Virus record (IMG/VR): IMGVR_UViG_2534681675_000022
DNA: 11,637 nucleotides
Direction: 5' to 3' (one strand)
DNA from: a virus
Taxonomy: Duplodnaviria; Heunggongvirae; Uroviricota; Caudoviricetes
Notes under the pieces: model-generated
The model's input: only the letters and a program-made list of their open reading frames with translations
What the model was told of the DNA's origin: nothing
Databases searched by the model: none
Program-made: the position numbers and the translations under genes
Shown here: piece by piece, positions 1,593 to 10,490 of the stretch
Layout: each line of letters starts with the position of its first letter
How positions within the stretch are numbered: position 1 is the first letter of the stretch

Positions 1593-1781
1593 GTGTTAAG
1601 CACTGATCGGTTTATACGTGAAAAAGAATGCGAAAAGCTAACAGGCCTTAGCCGCTCATGCCGCTACCGCCTGGAAAAGGCCGGACAATTCCCATCACGT
1701 CGTAAACTTGGCGGGCGTTCTGTTGGCTGGTCTTTATCTGAGGTTTTGGCCTGGAAGGATAGCTGCAAGGCAGTTCACTAA
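1593..1781 (+). CDS. alpA: AlpA-family phage transcriptional regulator (small HTH protein)
   Basis: 62-aa ORF with GTG start at 1593 and a GGGGG Shine-Dalgarno upstream. Sequence LTGLSRSCRYRLEKAGQFPSRRKLGGRSVGWSLSEVLAW matches the AlpA/prophage CP4-57 regulator signature. Position directly after int is typical of PICI and P4-like islands. Confidence 0.8.
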   Translation: MLSTDRFIREKECEKLTGLSRSCRYRLEKAGQFPSRRKLGGRSVGWSLSEVLAWKDSCKAVH

Positions 1782-2024: not shown

Positions 2025-2228
2025 TCAGGCTGGTGGGCAATTACCTTGCTTGTTGGGGCCGTATTGTGCTGCCATTTTCATCCGTTCAGAACGTGAATAT
2101 TTTTTTAGAAACTCATCAAGGACAAAAGCGCATGGAGCGAATCTTTCTGATTCATGCTCGAGCGCCATATTTTCGTGCTCTCTGTTCGTTTTTTGCGATG
2201 GTGTATTGGTTGATTCTTTATTGGTCAT
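2025..2228 (-). CDS. Hypothetical small protein (67 aa), paralog 1 of a duplicated pair
   Basis: ORF begins MTNK, shares the motif F-x-L-[DE]-[DE]-F-[LV]-x-K-Y with the 2686-2913 ORF, is preceded by the same conserved leader and followed by a minus-strand terminator. The overlapping plus-strand ORFs are Cys/Ser/Arg-rich and look non-coding. Confidence 0.45.
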   Translation of the reverse strand: MTNKESTNTPSQKTNREHENMALEHESERFAPCAFVLDEFLKKYSRSERMKMAAQYGPNKQGNCPPA

Positions 2229-2279: not shown

Positions 2280-2521
2280 TGTTTTTTATTCTTTGGGTTC
2301 AATACCGCGTTGCTGTAATTCTTTTCGGATTATTCGTTTTATCCAAGCTGCTAAAGAGTCATCACCGTCTTGTTGTTGTGCTTTTTCCATCTTTTCCCGT
2401 AAGTCAGGATCTAAACGGAACTGGAAAGGAGGATTACCACGCCTTTCATTTTTGTGTGTTGACACGTCAATTACACCCCATATAATGTGTTTATGTGTAT
2501 ATACACATTACACACAACTAG

Positions 2522-2685: not shown

Positions 2686-2913
2686 TCATCCTGGCGGTCG
2701 GTTTTTGCCGGATTTAAGCCGCCGTGGGTATTTATCGACAAAATCTTCAAGGGCAAATTTTTCTGGTGGCACTAAGCGCGGCGCTGGTGGTGGTATTTTT
2801 GTTCTGGTTAGTTCTTCCTCAAGTCTGGCGCAGGCTTCTGACTGCCTTTGCCGGATGATTTCATCATCTTGCGTTTGCGTGTCTTGTATTGGTGATAGTG
2901 TGTTGTTGGTCAT
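2686..2913 (-). CDS. Hypothetical small protein (75 aa), paralog 2 of a duplicated pair
   Basis: ORF begins MTNN, contains FALEDFVDKYPRR (compare FVLDEFLKKYSRS in the 2025-2228 ORF), and has the same leader immediately 5'. Confidence 0.45.
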   Translation of the reverse strand: MTNNTLSPIQDTQTQDDEIIRQRQSEACARLEEELTRTKIPPPAPRLVPPEKFALEDFVDKYPRRLKSGKNRPPG

Positions 2914-2970: not shown

Positions 2971-3150
2971 TTATTCTGATTCTTTGGCCTTGCGGCGCTG
3001 GCGGCGTTTGATCTCGCCTTCAAGTGCCGAAACGATAAATTGCCCTGTACTTTCGCCATCTTCCTTTAAATTTTCTACAGCATCAGCTATTGCGTGTGGT
3101 ACTCGAGCCTCAAGCTTTTTGGATTTTGCATTAACTGCTTTTGTTGCCAT
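2971..3150 (-). CDS. Ribbon-helix-helix (Arc/MetJ/CopG-like) DNA-binding protein, 59 aa; candidate island repressor
   Basis: Internal ATG at 3148-3150 with a GAGGAAA Shine-Dalgarno; the ORF track's longer 106-aa version has a poor N-terminus. MATKAVNAKSKKLEARVPHAIADAVENLKEDGESTGQFIVSALEGEI fits the RHH strand/helix/G-x-S/helix pattern (compare Arc ...NLRWPREVLDLVRKVAEENGRSVNSEIYQRV). Divergent from the rightward operon. Confidence 0.5.
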   Translation of the reverse strand: MATKAVNAKSKKLEARVPHAIADAVENLKEDGESTGQFIVSALEGEIKRRQRRKAKESE

Positions 3151-3171
3151 ATCTGATTTCCTCGTTATTAG

Positions 3172-3251
3172 GTGGCTGACAGTATACACACAAGAAAACG
3201 GAAAAACACTATTGACGTGGCTGACACCCGTTACTAATATAGTGGCTGACA
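3172..3251. promoter_or_regulatory. Divergent control region: three direct repeats GTGGCTGACA overlapping a sigma70-like promoter
   Basis: Perfect 10-bp GTGGCTGACA at 3172-3181, 3217-3226 and 3242-3251. TTGACG (3212-3217), 17-bp spacer, TAATAT (3235-3240) faces the plus-strand operon; repeats overlap the -35 and abut the -10. Confidence 0.5.
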
Positions 3252-3344
3252 CCTTTATCAAGGTAATCGATGAAAAGACAAAGCCCCGCAAGTGTCGTTA
3301 CCACTCGCAGGGCTTCTAACCAACAACGTAAACTAGGAGCCGTT

Positions 3345-3542
3345 ATGGTTGCCGTAAATCATATACCACACCTTGTACACACACAAACTGCCTTTGTGTG
3401 GCGTTTTCTGGCCCTGAGTGCCGGAGAATCTCAAATCATCCACGTCACCGCCTGGACGGAACGCGAAGCGCGTAACCGTTGCCCGTCCGGTTGTGTTGCT
3501 GTATTTGCCGCCCGTATTCGTCAGGAGGTGCGCCATGATTAA
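3345..3542 (+). CDS. Hypothetical protein (65 aa), first gene of rightward operon
   Basis: ATG at 3345 preceded by AGGAG; the longer ORF-track version starts upstream of the RBS. Stop overlaps the start of the next ORF. Confidence 0.5.
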   Translation: MVAVNHIPHLVHTQTAFVWRFLALSAGESQIIHVTAWTEREARNRCPSGCVAVFAARIRQEVRHD

Positions 3543-3747
3543 TCTGTCACTTACTGACCTTAACCGCATTCAGTTTCGTGAGAAATTCACAGGGCAGCTA
3601 CTGGTCAATGTGGATAAAGGTCGCGTGGTGTGTAATTACCACTTACCAGATGAAGCAATTGTCGCCACAAGGGAATCATTACAGGAAATCACAAAACGTG
3701 CCGGAATGATTAACACGAATATTCAGGGGATGCTTTATGCACAATAA
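3535..3747 (+). CDS. Hypothetical protein (70 aa)
   Basis: ATG at 3535 preceded by CAGGAGGTG; translationally coupled to the flanking ORFs. Confidence 0.5.
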   Translation: MINLSLTDLNRIQFREKFTGQLLVNVDKGRVVCNYHLPDEAIVATRESLQEITKRAGMINTNIQGMLYAQ

Positions 3748-3967
3748 AACCACACCGGACGCAGCAGAAGAAGCAATGCAAATACTGATACGTGCGCTCG
3801 TTGATGTTACCCACATGGTGGAGATTATGGAGAGAAAATCACAGTCGGAGCACGACAAAAGAAAACTTAAAACAATAAAAATAATTGCCAAAAACTCGCT
3901 GATAAAAGTTACAGACATCCTTAATGAGGACATTAAAAGAATAAGGGAGAAAATTTGTGATGCATAA
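3737..3967 (+). CDS. Hypothetical protein (76 aa), AT-rich
   Basis: ATG at 3737 with upstream CAGGGGA; Lys/Ile/Glu-rich helical-looking protein; local GC is visibly lower than in neighbours. Confidence 0.5.
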   Translation: MHNKTTPDAAEEAMQILIRALVDVTHMVEIMERKSQSEHDKRKLKTIKIIAKNSLIKVTDILNEDIKRIREKICDA

Positions 3968-4187
3968 AATCCCTTTTGAAGTATTAATCCACTCTGAAAA
4001 CGCATTAATTAAAGCACGCGAAATGAATGCGTTGTTAATTAAATTAATTGAAGTGCCGGAAGGTGGTGAGGAATCAGGTGTATTAATGTTTGCAGCCATT
4101 CAGACATTACTATCGCCTGTTATTGATGAACTGGATAAGGCAATGGCAATTCACGAAAATAATAACGCGCCCCACACCGGAGAATAA
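3957..4187 (+). CDS. Hypothetical protein (76 aa), AT-rich
   Basis: GTG 3957 or ATG 3960 with AAGGGAGA upstream; overlaps the previous stop. Confidence 0.5.
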   Translation: MMHKIPFEVLIHSENALIKAREMNALLIKLIEVPEGGEESGVLMFAAIQTLLSPVIDELDKAMAIHENNNAPHTGE

Positions 4188-4192
4188 AAATA

Positions 4193-4492
4193 ATGAAACT
4201 TAAATATTCTGGCTTAACTGCCAGTGGCAACACTCACCCTAAATTTACGCGCGGTGATATTTACCGCGACCAGTACGGCGGCACGGTAATGATTAAGGGC
4301 GTGGCGGGACGGTGCGTAACTTACCGCCATGAAGGTTACGAATATGATTGCGTGATGCCTGTTTATCAGTTCCGGCGTGATTTTTCTCTGGTACAGACCG
4401 CGCCGCATAACGTGCCCACCAGCAACGCCAGGGCACGGGCAAACATCCAGAAGCTGAAAACCATGATTAACGGATTCAGGGGTAAAAAATGA
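4193..4492 (+). CDS. Hypothetical protein (99 aa), overlaps start of replication gene
   Basis: ATG 4193 with GGAGA upstream; its stop overlaps the ATG of the primase ORF (ATGA coupling). Confidence 0.55.
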   Translation: MKLKYSGLTASGNTHPKFTRGDIYRDQYGGTVMIKGVAGRCVTYRHEGYEYDCVMPVYQFRRDFSLVQTAPHNVPTSNARARANIQKLKTMINGFRGKK

Positions 4493-6237
4493 AACTGGCA
4501 CCGAACGTAAAAAAACAGCCACGCGGAATAAAACACAAAGACACAGAGGTAATTATCTTTGCGGGTAGTGATGCCTGGTCGCACGCGAAACAATGGCAGG
4601 AGCAGGATGGCCCCGCATCCGGCGATAATGTGCCGCCTGTGTGGCTTGGGCCAAAGCAGCTTGCCGAACTTGATGCGCTGAAAATTGTTCCGGATGGGAA
4701 AAAGCGCGTAAGGCTGTACCAGGCCGGAGAACTGGATTTAGTGGAGACCAAAAAGATTGGTCAGAAGCTGGCGGCGGCAGATATTCAGGACGCAAATTTT
4801 TACCACGAAGGAATGCACGTCCAGAAGTGTGAAAACTGGCGGCGCTATCTGAATGCTGAGCGTGAAAATATTGCCGCAGGGCTTACCATGCCGGAGCAGA
4901 AAAATACGCAACTGGCACAAATGGCAGACAGTGAGCGCGCACAGATGCTTGCTGGTCGATTTGATGGCGTTTGTGTGCATCCGGAAAGTGAAATCGTTCA
5001 CGTATGGCGCGGCGGGGTATGGTGTCCGGTCAGCACAATGGAACTTAGCCGCGAAATGGTGGCGATCTATTCAGAGCACAGGGCCACTTTCAGCAAACGC
5101 GTGATCAATAACGCCGTTGAAGCGTTAAAAGTTATTGCCGAACCAATGGGGGAGCCGTCCGGCGATTTGTTGCCGTTCGCCAATGGTGCGCTTGACCTGA
5201 AAACGGGGGAATTTTCCCCGTACACGCCGGAGAACTGGATCACCACGCACAACGGCATTGAGTACACGCCACCAGCACCTGGGGAGAACATCCGCGATAA
5301 CGCGCCAAACTTTCATAAATGGCTTGAGCACGCAGCCGGAAAAGACCCGCGCAAGATGATGCGTATATGTGCCGCGCTGTACATGATTATGGCGAACCGG
5401 TACGACTGGCAGATGTTTATTGAGGCCACCGGAGACGGCGGGAGCGGTAAAAGTACATTCACACACATAGCCAGCCTTCTGGCAGGGAAACAGAACACGG
5501 TAAGCGCTGAAATGACATCGCTTGATGATGCTGGTGGACGTGCGCAGGTTGTCGGGAGTCGTCTTATCGTCCTGGCAGACCAGCCGAAATATACAGGCGA
5601 AGGAACGGGCATCAAGAAAATCACGGGCGGCGACCCCGTGGAAATAAACCCGAAATATGAAAAGCGTTTCACGGCGGTAATCAGGGCGGTGGTGCTGGCG
5701 ACCAATAATAACCCGATGATATTCACCGAACGGGCCGGAGGTGTGGCACGTCGTCGCGTGATTTTCCGTTTCGACAATATTGTTAGTGAGGCCGAAAAAG
5801 ACAGGGAACTACCGGAAAAAATTGCGGCTGAAATCCCCGTTATTATCCGCCGCTTGCTGGCGAACTTTACCGACCCTGAAAAGGCGAGGGCTTTACTACT
5901 GGAACAGCGTGACGGTGATGAAGCACTGGCAATAAAGCAACAGACGGATCCGGTTATTGAGTTTTGCCAGTTCCTGAATTTTCTGGAGGAAGCGCGCGGC
6001 CTGATGATGGGTGGCGGTGGTGATTCAGTGAAGTACACGACCAGGAACAGCCTTTACCGCGTCTATCTGGCGTTTATGGCATACGCAGGCAGGAGCAAAC
6101 CGCTAAACGTGGCTGAGTTCAGCAAGGCCATGAAGCCAGCGGCGAAAGTTTACGGGCATGAATATATTACGCGAAAAGTTAAGGGAGTAACGCAGACCAA
6201 CGCAATTACAACAGACGATTGCGACGCGTTTTTATAA
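4489..6237 (+). CDS. Replication initiator: phage/plasmid primase-associated D5_N-type domain plus P-loop (SF3-helicase-like) NTPase
   Basis: 582-aa ORF. Walker A GDGGSGKST and a Walker B-like hydrophobic stretch RLIVLADQ; central region typical of the P4-family primase C-terminal/D5_N architecture; located directly upstream of an iteron array. Confidence 0.85.
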   Translation: MKLAPNVKKQPRGIKHKDTEVIIFAGSDAWSHAKQWQEQDGPASGDNVPPVWLGPKQLAELDALKIVPDGKKRVRLYQAGELDLVETKKIGQKLAAADIQDANFYHEGMHVQKCENWRRYLNAERENIAAGLTMPEQKNTQLAQMADSERAQMLAGRFDGVCVHPESEIVHVWRGGVWCPVSTMELSREMVAIYSEHRATFSKRVINNAVEALKVIAEPMGEPSGDLLPFANGALDLKTGEFSPYTPENWITTHNGIEYTPPAPGENIRDNAPNFHKWLEHAAGKDPRKMMRICAALYMIMANRYDWQMFIEATGDGGSGKSTFTHIASLLAGKQNTVSAEMTSLDDAGGRAQVVGSRLIVLADQPKYTGEGTGIKKITGGDPVEINPKYEKRFTAVIRAVVLATNNNPMIFTERAGGVARRRVIFRFDNIVSEAEKDRELPEKIAAEIPVIIRRLLANFTDPEKARALLLEQRDGDEALAIKQQTDPVIEFCQFLNFLEEARGLMMGGGGDSVKYTTRNSLYRVYLAFMAYAGRSKPLNVAEFSKAMKPAAKVYGHEYITRKVKGVTQTNAITTDDCDAFL

Positions 6238-9097: not shown

Positions 9098-9514
9098 ATG
9101 ATGGCAACGAATGAAAGCATCATGACGCTACCGCTGGCGAGTAAATTTAAAGCCGAAGCGCGGGCAATGGCTGACAGAGGGTTATCAACCTACGAGGGCA
9201 TATATCAACTTAACAAACTGGAAGAGCAGGACAAGCCGCGCGCTGATTCGATTATGGCGCTTGATGAATCTGGCGACTATCAGCCGCTGTTACGTGCAAT
9301 GGCAAACGTGCCTTGTATCGATGTTGGTACGGCTAAAAGCATCCTTAGCATGACCATAGAGCAGGAACGTCCGAAGGTTGCGCCGGAGCTTACCGCAGCC
9401 TTTGAAAACTTTATGGACACGCACAGCCCGCAAGCCGTATCAGCTGGCATGGCATACGATGGCAGAAACCCGGGCGATGACGGCGACATCGATCGCATAC
9501 TGAAAACCATCTGA
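9098..9514 (+). CDS. Hypothetical protein (138 aa) downstream of the capsid genes
   Basis: ATG 9098 or 9101 after AGGGGG; last gene before the terminator and cos. Sits where lambda has FI, but I could not support sequence similarity to FI. Confidence 0.55.
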   Translation: MMATNESIMTLPLASKFKAEARAMADRGLSTYEGIYQLNKLEEQDKPRADSIMALDESGDYQPLLRAMANVPCIDVGTAKSILSMTIEQERPKVAPELTAAFENFMDTHSPQAVSAGMAYDGRNPGDDGDIDRILKTI

Positions 9515-9719: not shown

Positions 9720-10262
9720 ATGAAATCGCACCTGATGAACAAAAAAAACATGGCGAAAAGCTGCCGTGTAAGTGCGACAGCGTTCGACAAGTGGGGAGTG
9801 ACTCCCGTTGAACGTAAAGGCCGTGAGGCGTTTTATGATGTTGCCAGCGTGATAGACAATAGGGTTAACAATGCAATTAGCCAGCTTACAAACGACAAAG
9901 GCGATATTGATGATGATGAACTCTTACGAGTCAGGATCAGATTACTGACAGCACAGGCGGAGGCGCAGGAACTTAAAAACGAGCGCGATCGCGGTGACGT
10001 GATTGATACTGAGTTTTGCCTGTACGCGCTTTCAAAGCTGGCGAGTCAGATTTCATCAATCATGGACAGCCTCCCGCTTACTATGCAAAGGAGCTTCCCA
10101 CAGATTACCCCCGCCATGCTGGACAGGCTTAAAAGGGAAGTGGTTAAAGCCTGTAATGCCAGTGCCAGAGTTGCCGACAACCTCCCACAGATACTGGCTG
10201 ATTACTTGAAAGAAACAACCGGAAACGTACCGGAAAAGTTGCTACAGAAGAAAGGCAAGTAA
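9720..10262 (+). CDS. Terminase small subunit, lambda Nu1 family
   Basis: 180-aa ORF. C-terminal two-thirds align with lambda Nu1: LLTAQAEAQELKNERD vs LTRAQADAQELKNARD; FCLYALSKLASQISSIMDSLPLTMQRSFPQ vs FCTFVLSRIAGEIASILDGLPLSVQRRFPE; LKREVVKACN vs LKRDIIKAMN. N-terminal wHTH region is recognisable (NKK..., YDVASVI vs YDSAAVI) but divergent in the recognition-helix region. Start could be 9720, 9735 or 9750. Confidence 0.85.
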   Translation: MKSHLMNKKNMAKSCRVSATAFDKWGVTPVERKGREAFYDVASVIDNRVNNAISQLTNDKGDIDDDELLRVRIRLLTAQAEAQELKNERDRGDVIDTEFCLYALSKLASQISSIMDSLPLTMQRSFPQITPAMLDRLKREVVKACNASARVADNLPQILADYLKETTGNVPEKLLQKKGK

Positions 10263-10288
10263 CAGAAGCGCAATTATTGAACAAAAAT

Positions 10289-10490
10289 GAGAAAGGATCT
10301 GATAATGGCATTTTCTGGCTAAAATGCCTCGTGTCAGATCCTTTCTTTTTTTAATATTTTCATTGTTAAACAGTCTGTTACAGAGAAGAAGAACGGATCT
10401 GACTTTTGCCGGAAAATTTTCATAAACAGATAAAAACCGCGAGGTCGCCGCCCCGTAACGGGCCATAATTCCAGGAAGGACCCGACGACA
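10289..10490 (-). other. Lambda-type cos site B in inverted orientation: cosQ-side flank, cosN (10442-10453) and a full cosB-like region with three R-like repeats
   Basis: Minus strand reads CGGGTCCTTCCTGGAATTATGGCCCGTTACG GGGCGGCGACCT CGCGGTTTTTATCTGTTTATGAAAATTTTCCGG ...CCGTTCTTCTTC..., tracking lambda cos for more than 100 bp. Core GGATCTGA/TCAGATCC at 10294-10301, 10333-10340 and 10395-10402 sits where lambda has CGTTTCC/GGAAACG, in the same orientation pattern. The inner 13-bp inverted repeat (10289-10301 / 10333-10345) plus T-run also looks like a terminator for terS. Confidence 0.75.

Follow-up and report, generated by a model that had tools for sequence, protein, structure and literature searches.

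The closest described analogue of the locus reported here is the immI region of phage P22 (Mnt/Arc), in which a small ribbon-helix-helix (RHH) repressor gene lies divergent from the operon that it controls, with the operators in or over the promoters and with two back-to-back promoters, Pant and Pmnt, the repressor's own being weak and autoregulated. In P4, the PLL transcripts that start with vis—an AlpA homologue—bypass the PLE immunity. For the PICIs of Gram-negative bacteria, the searchable literature names AlpA as the activator and calls the global repressor unclear; the zone extending from alpA to the replication genes is described as one of Bro-N genes with immunity RNAs, and a variable gene of unknown function is placed downstream of alpA. 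In EcCIEDL933, the prototype capsid-forming PICI (cf-PICI), the inactivation of alpA abolishes induction and alpA overexpression is used to drive the island's reproduction.

The window—that is, the whole stretch of DNA analysed, of 11,637 bp—corresponds at 100% identity to a chromosomal island in tqsA of E. coli 2014C-3097 (RefSeq NZ_CP027449), in which the integrase gene and alpA are followed by two cassettes of two genes each, both facing left, then by a rightward operon, and then by the genes for SSB, major capsid, decoration protein, and small terminase. The island is a cf-PICI by its gene set: the RefSeq annotation contains int, alpA, a primase, and the element's own capsid, decoration, and small-terminase genes, and the element has the size of a satellite and is inserted in a chromosomal gene. 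The genes that concern us are the following:

1-1218: integrase gene
1593-1781, plus strand: alpA, the known PICI activator (Pfam PF05930, E 5e-18)
2686-2913, minus strand: 75-aa gene that follows the RHH gene on the leftward transcript; optional cargo
2971-3150, minus strand: 59-aa YlcI/YnfO-family RHH gene, the proposed repressor (RefSeq annotation)
3345-6237, plus strand: the operon proposed to be controlled (icd-like gene, three small overlapping ORFs, DUF4222 gene, DNA primase gene)
3345-3542, plus strand: icd-like gene (NF033153)
4193-4492, plus strand: DUF4222 gene
4489-6237, plus strand: DNA primase gene

Among the neighbouring small proteins the only significant Pfam families were AlpA and DUF4222, and a scan of the whole window against Rfam, at E values up to 1, gave no match near the region and none to the C4, CI, or isrK immunity RNAs.

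The 194-bp gap between the 59-aa gene and the icd-like/primase operon holds all three copies of GTGGCTGACA, which 10-mer occurs exactly three times in the window (3172-3181, 3217-3226, and 3242-3251), with start-to-start distances of 45 and 25 bp. The three perfect direct repeats, their spacing, and the promoter that they overlap had been pointed out in a sequence-only reading, and each was found where it had been placed. No 10-mer occurred thrice within 100 bp in any of 300 first-order Markov sequences of the window's length; the repeats are real and chance is ruled out. Copies 2 and 3 share a 12-bp identity (GTGGCTGACACC), and one copy with a single mismatch is present at 9167-9176, the number of such copies being within the chance expectation. 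The elements of the gap are these:

3172-3182, plus strand: O1, candidate operator copy 1 (GTGGCTGACAg), 21 bp upstream of the RHH start codon
3181-3186, minus strand: inferred -10 (TATACT) of the promoter of the RHH gene itself, 30-35 bp ahead of its start codon
3212-3240, plus strand: putative sigma-70-type promoter of the icd-like/primase operon, TTGACG (3212-3217)-17-TAATAT (3235-3240)
3217-3227, plus strand: O2, candidate operator copy 2 (GTGGCTGACAC), filling the promoter spacer
3242-3252, plus strand: O3, candidate operator copy 3 (GTGGCTGACAC), covering the expected transcription start
3280-3316, plus strand: conserved stem-loop in the leader, past the operon promoter and ahead of the icd-like start codon

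The first base of O2 is the last base of the -35 hexamer TTGACG, O3 begins 2 bp past the -10 TAATAT, and the final base of O1 overlaps the -10 ascribed to the RHH gene; the three sites would thus all lie on core promoter elements, two on those of the operon (spacer for O2, +1 for O3) and one, O1, on the -10 of the RHH gene. The operon promoter has a consensus score of 9/12 and an A-rich tract upstream, which match taken by itself is at the chance level (5 sites found versus 4.2 expected in shuffles); the promoter is nonetheless supported because the TTGA of its -35 is kept at a fixed offset of 60-62 from the RHH start codon in nearly all the related loci. The sequence cAGTATAc beside O1 is, for its part, invariant across all the specificity classes described below, and no recognisable -35 was found for the RHH gene's own promoter; since a TATACT -10 lies beside O1 with no -35, O1 would occupy the -10/+1 region of a weak RHH promoter.

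The 59-aa protein scored 60.6 bits (E 1.1e-16) on the NCBIfam model NF041551 (YlcI/YnfO), for which the cut-off is 30. The protein model shows one beta-strand and then two helices, all within a domain of roughly 45 residues; in the predicted layout the strand spans approximately residues 11-17, the first helix (A) 19-28, and the second (B) 35-58; according to this model, the YlcI/YnfO-family protein of the window has a ribbon-helix-helix fold. The ORF, which the sequence-only reading had taken for an RHH gene, is real. In Pfam, at E values up to 10, the protein was assigned to no family, and 32 members of the YlcI/YnfO family likewise gave no significant family; a profile search against the PDB returned Arc at E = 1, and hhalign against Arc gave a probability of 28%, with the beta-strand register of the window protein aligning with that of Arc.

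We compared four E. coli intergenic variants and 38 loci from other species (RHH alignment), and added eight loci with further RHH alleles along with 20 IMG/VR contigs that had been fetched by DNA motif alone. Some 45 related islands, found in Escherichia, Xenorhabdus, Pectobacterium, and Yersinia among others, keep the positions of the three sites, and in all the informative loci the distances from the RHH start codon are 21 bp for site 1, 65-66 bp for site 2, and 87-101 bp for site 3. The generic site is GTG-N5-CA[C], whose N5 core differs between islands; within a single island, the cores are equal at sites 2 and 3, and that of site 1 is within 1-2 bases of them. The core tracks residues 11-14 of the RHH protein, and together they form 12 matched classes:

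KKLE: GTGGCTGACA (class A, that of the window)
Q[AS]LK: GTGGGCCACA
QS[VI]T: GTGTAAGACA
QMTT: GTGTAT[GT]TCA
QTLA: GTGTT[CT]AACA
QKLQ: GTGGAGT[CA]CA
KR[FI]D: GTGTCCGACA
TQIA: GTG[GC]TTAGCA
QKIH: GTGGAACACA
KKMQ: GTGGAGCACA
LQVS: GTGGTGTTCA
Twelfth class: the Klebsiella variant

Positions 11-15 of the protein are an entropy hot spot between invariant flanks (N7-S10 and R16-P18), and residues 10-17 separate the six tabulated operator classes with no exception. R16 and the GTG/CA flanks of the site are constant while residues 11-15 and the N5 core vary, and the co-variation of these last two across the 12 classes is indirect evidence for specificity in the beta-strand. Four classes carry site 3 in the opposite orientation: in QS[VI]T, QMTT, and QKIH it reads as the reverse complement of site 2, exactly or nearly so, and the fourth is the Klebsiella variant; therefore, each 11-bp unit should work alone and in either orientation. 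In classes other than that of the window, copy 3 lies 22-35 bp from O2.

Between the class-A islands of E. coli and Xenorhabdus the repeats are 97-100% identical, versus 44-57% for the other intergenic bases. In the reverse direction, 19 of the 20 IMG/VR contigs carrying the O2-O3 pair encode an RHH protein with KSKKLEARVPH exactly 67 bp away, whereas among these contigs the other products of the islands range from undetected to 100% identity (AlpA), from 41 to 97% (primase), and from 40 to 100% (Icd-like). In a natural recombinant RHH protein (locus L045) the N-terminal half is of class A and the C-terminal half of class B, and the sites beside its gene are of class A, which instance leaves the N-terminal half and the sites unseparated; moreover, part of the co-variation could be linkage because the RHH gene adjoins the sites. 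Comparison of the loci indicates that the sites and the RHH protein are a matched pair, with the specificity residing in the outward-facing beta-strand residues 11-15, so that the pairing of the repeats with the adjacent gene, which had been put forward as plausible, has gained support from both the co-variation over about 45 loci and the reverse search.

Co-resident islands in three Xenorhabdus genomes differ in class (L012/L035, L007/L038, and L014/L036), which distribution, though the sample is small, fits an immunity-group function. Some loci are decayed: in that of Xenorhabdus japonica (L015) sites 1 and 3 are apparently fused and the promoter is deleted, and in two others (L009 and L052) the usual intergenic region is missing beside the RHH gene. 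The one contig of the reverse search that failed to encode the protein (L054) is unrelated and of high GC; it contains GTGGCTGACACCTTTTG at 10190-10290, within a large ORF, as a 22-bp tandem array of four copies, the last imperfect, that resembles origin iterons, and the 15 bases that it has in common with the third site of the window are probably a coincidence.

We propose, with a probability of roughly 0.8, that the copies of GTGGCTGACA are the operators of the divergent 59-aa RHH repressor, through which that protein would repress the replication operon and regulate its own synthesis. By occupying O2, which fills the spacer and touches the -35, together with O3, which runs from just past the -10 across the start, the protein would shut off the operon promoter; when bound at O1, on the -10 and the start of its own weak promoter, it would limit RHH synthesis. 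We infer the repression, the autoregulation, and both promoters from position and conservation, and the locations of O2, O3, and O1 relative to the two promoters fit the repressor geometry initially suggested, to which autoregulation may now be added. In many classes O1 departs by 1-2 bases from O2 and O3, and such a slightly imperfect site is what a lower-affinity autoregulatory operator would look like. The cassette—RHH gene, O1-O3, back-to-back promoters, and leader hairpin—would then constitute a mobile, hypervariable, immunity-like module of Enterobacterales satellites that prevents transcription of the replication genes from their internal promoter while the island is resident. Induction would most probably still proceed via AlpA, perhaps—and here we speculate—by transcription from the alpA promoter that reads through the cassette: the plus strand from alpA to position 3380 showed nothing resembling a terminator, so that transcripts might cross the RHH gene in antisense and continue into the operon.

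A different explanation is that the RHH protein binds the repeats without repressing the operon, as an activator, an architectural protein, or a centromere-type protein in the manner of ParG or omega. We consider this improbable: sites in the spacer and over the +1 of a promoter with a near-consensus -35 have the geometry of occlusion, unlike that of activation; the island has no partition ATPase; and the cassette heads the replication operon in every locus. Still less probable is that the protein is an antitoxin paired with the product of the 2686-2913 gene, with the repeats being merely its autoregulatory operator, since two of the three sites lie on the divergent operon promoter rather than on that of the RHH gene. 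The downstream gene, moreover, is missing behind the RHH gene in two loci (L002 and L004), its product has no toxin-family match, and a conserved toxin gene immediately downstream of the RHH gene, as in type II toxin-antitoxin systems, is not found.

The repeats had alternatively been suggested to be activator boxes for AlpA, whose binding would switch on the replication operon. In favour of that possibility, AlpA is, as mentioned, the known activator of the Gram-negative PICIs, and the AlpA of Pseudomonas binds within a promoter spacer. The site sequence, however, does not follow the AlpA allele: AlpA is 100% identical in the window and in two other loci (L004 and L005), where the repeats belong to classes A, B, and C, respectively; 15 pairs of loci differ in repeat class despite an AlpA identity of 90% or more; 28 pairs with AlpA less than 60% identical have the same class; and the 19 contigs with the class-A pair show the wide spread of AlpA given above. 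With the AlpA allele decoupled from the repeat class, we rejected AlpA as the protein that specifies the repeats, and the activator-box alternative retains hardly any probability. That the repeats are replication iterons for the island's primase or initiator, as the iteron-like array of the same 15-mer in L054 might suggest, is equally remote, given that primases 90% identical (window, L004, and L005) pair with three repeat classes, that class-A repeats occur with primases 41-97% identical, that the sites in the window are non-tandem and frame a promoter, and that PICI origins are located downstream of pri according to the literature. The Icd-like protein of the window is likewise 92% identical to that of L005, though the repeat classes differ, and only 46% identical to that of L002, though both are class A. 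On the comparison of loci, then, AlpA and the other candidate binders (primase and Icd-like) are excluded as specifying the repeats, and the RHH protein is retained as their cognate.

All 24 aligned loci retain the leader stem-loop at 3280-3316, in which four of the nine predicted pairs show compensatory changes and the inner GTG/CAC arms are invariant; it has counterparts at 2535-2568 in the window and at 4007-4043 in the O157:H7 island described below (L044); no Rfam family matched it. In the window the structure is terminator-like on the minus strand, but we rejected a minus-strand terminator as its conserved function, the T-run not being kept in several loci upon inspection by eye; a P1 c4-type model, with the hairpin loop pairing with the icd-like ribosome-binding site, was also discarded, as being inconsistent between loci by the same kind of inspection. 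A plus-strand terminator-like hairpin with a T-run is situated at 3380-3400, 35 bp inside the icd-like gene—a similar sequence, as judged by eye, being present at L044 4107-4127, in the EDL933 island—and is a possible attenuator of the operon. Between int and alpA we noted three copies (1263-1303 and 1513-1533) of a roughly 21-bp motif resembling ACAACGTGACACAATCA, which copies are candidate Int arm-type sites or AlpA sites in the alpA promoter region.

The sequence-only reading had also considered the 59-aa protein to be the only repressor-type protein in the island, keeping the latter quiescent until the arrival of a helper-encoded inducer. Neither part of that view was upheld. Regarding the first, a second 59-aa RHH-like gene is present, in a second cassette of the same design:

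2025-2645: second cassette (whole extent)
2025-2228, minus strand: small gene
2286-2465, minus strand: 59-aa RHH-like gene (candidate fold)
2459-2486, plus strand: TTGACA-16-TATAAT, 12/12 consensus
2483-2510: inverted repeat TAATGTGT/ACACATTA
2535-2568: leader hairpin
ATG at 2597: icd-like stump, first codons only

The second RHH-like protein scored 20 bits on NF041551, below the cut-off of 30. The cassette looks like a tandem truncated copy upstream of the first, and its strong promoter aims antisense into the downstream RHH gene. The 75-nt spacers between the RHH gene and the small gene of each cassette (2903-2977 and 2218-2292) are 80% identical, whereas the flanking proteins are barely alignable; the former spacer contains a GC-rich hairpin at 2935-2961. 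A stretch similar to the spacer was noticed by eye in the EDL933 island.

Regarding the second part, in EcCIEDL933 the known trigger is alpA and no anti-repressor. The O157:H7 island (L044), which is identical in EDL933, carries a homologous leftward RHH-like gene, a candidate RHH (L044 3746-3937), together with two GTGGTCACCT repeats at 3938 and 3973. Since AlpA overexpression alone induces EcCIEDL933 despite this related cassette, the RHH protein is not an absolute lock. In RefSeq, an antisense 247-aa ORF is annotated over the leftward cassette, at 1834-2586 in the window and at L044 3303-4046—about 1682166-1683166 of NZ_CP008957.1 in EDL933—beneath which ORF the two leftward genes of L044, the RHH-like one included, are unannotated. 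The prototype of the cf-PICIs therefore hides a related, candidate RHH-like cassette under a mis-annotated ORF.

The clusters of homologues with a named organism are all from Enterobacterales (Escherichia, Salmonella, Klebsiella, Enterobacter, Pectobacterium, Serratia, Yersinia, Proteus, and Xenorhabdus), and a tblastn search of 50,697 phage genomes with the RHH protein found no match. Of 5,426 complete E. coli genomes, 799 contain parts of the intergenic region, and in most of these a stretch of about 70 bp that includes the leader stem-loop matches. In the searchable literature we found no paper linking an RHH protein to phage satellites and no functional study of YlcI/YnfO. An autoregulated RHH repressor with repeated operators is in itself a well-known and ordinary mechanism; the novelty, as judged from the loci compared, lies in the YlcI/YnfO family, in its position within Gram-negative satellites, and in the many specificities for which protein and sites are matched. 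The co-variation would assign a function to that uncharacterised family, and a candidate repressor-operator cassette would be located on the promoter of the replication operon across many Enterobacterales satellites.

A further-reaching proposal, which we offer tentatively and with the odds somewhat against it, is that the YlcI/YnfO cassette is the missing immunity repressor of the Gram-negative PICIs, with at least a dozen orthogonal specificities and with AlpA-driven read-through as the override. Were this so, the orthogonal specificities would let several islands co-occupy one cell without cross-repression; induction would override rather than inactivate the RHH protein, as a protein-based analogue of the P4 PLE/PLL bypass; and the relation of residues 12 and 14 to the core bases would amount to a simple natural recognition code, from which ready-made orthogonal repressors could be taken.

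As to the known systems, the RHH protein of the window belongs to the same NCBIfam family, NF041551, as YlcI of DLP12 and YnfO of Qin in E. coli K-12. The operators of Arc, MetJ, and omega are contiguous and accommodate several dimers—the heptads of omega (pSM19035/inc18) being cooperatively bound—whereas the 11-bp units of the window are isolated, at 22-45 bp from one another. The SaPI repressors Stl and Rpr resemble the present case in being encoded by a satellite gene divergent from the replication operon and between int and pri; Stl proteins, however, are larger, of the HTH type, and relieved by helper proteins, in contrast to the RHH fold and the AlpA trigger considered here. With P4 the island has in common an activator-dependent promoter, alpA/vis, an immunity module with an internal promoter, and a replication operon, but the immunity factor of P4 is the CI RNA at PLE and that of the window is, as proposed, a protein; a read-through across the cassette would, speculatively, resemble the PLL bypass.

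The P22 immI region shares with the cassette of the window the divergent arrangement of the small RHH gene and the controlled operon, the operators in and over the promoters, the back-to-back promoters with a weak autoregulated one for the repressor, and the register of the beta-strand in Arc. The two nevertheless differ in that the sequence similarity is non-significant; that the cassette has one RHH protein, P22 two; that the cassette has three isolated 11-bp sites in place of the operators of 17-21 bp that are bound by tetramers in P22; and that the genes under control would be the replication genes plus the icd-like gene instead of an antirepressor, in a host element that is a satellite.
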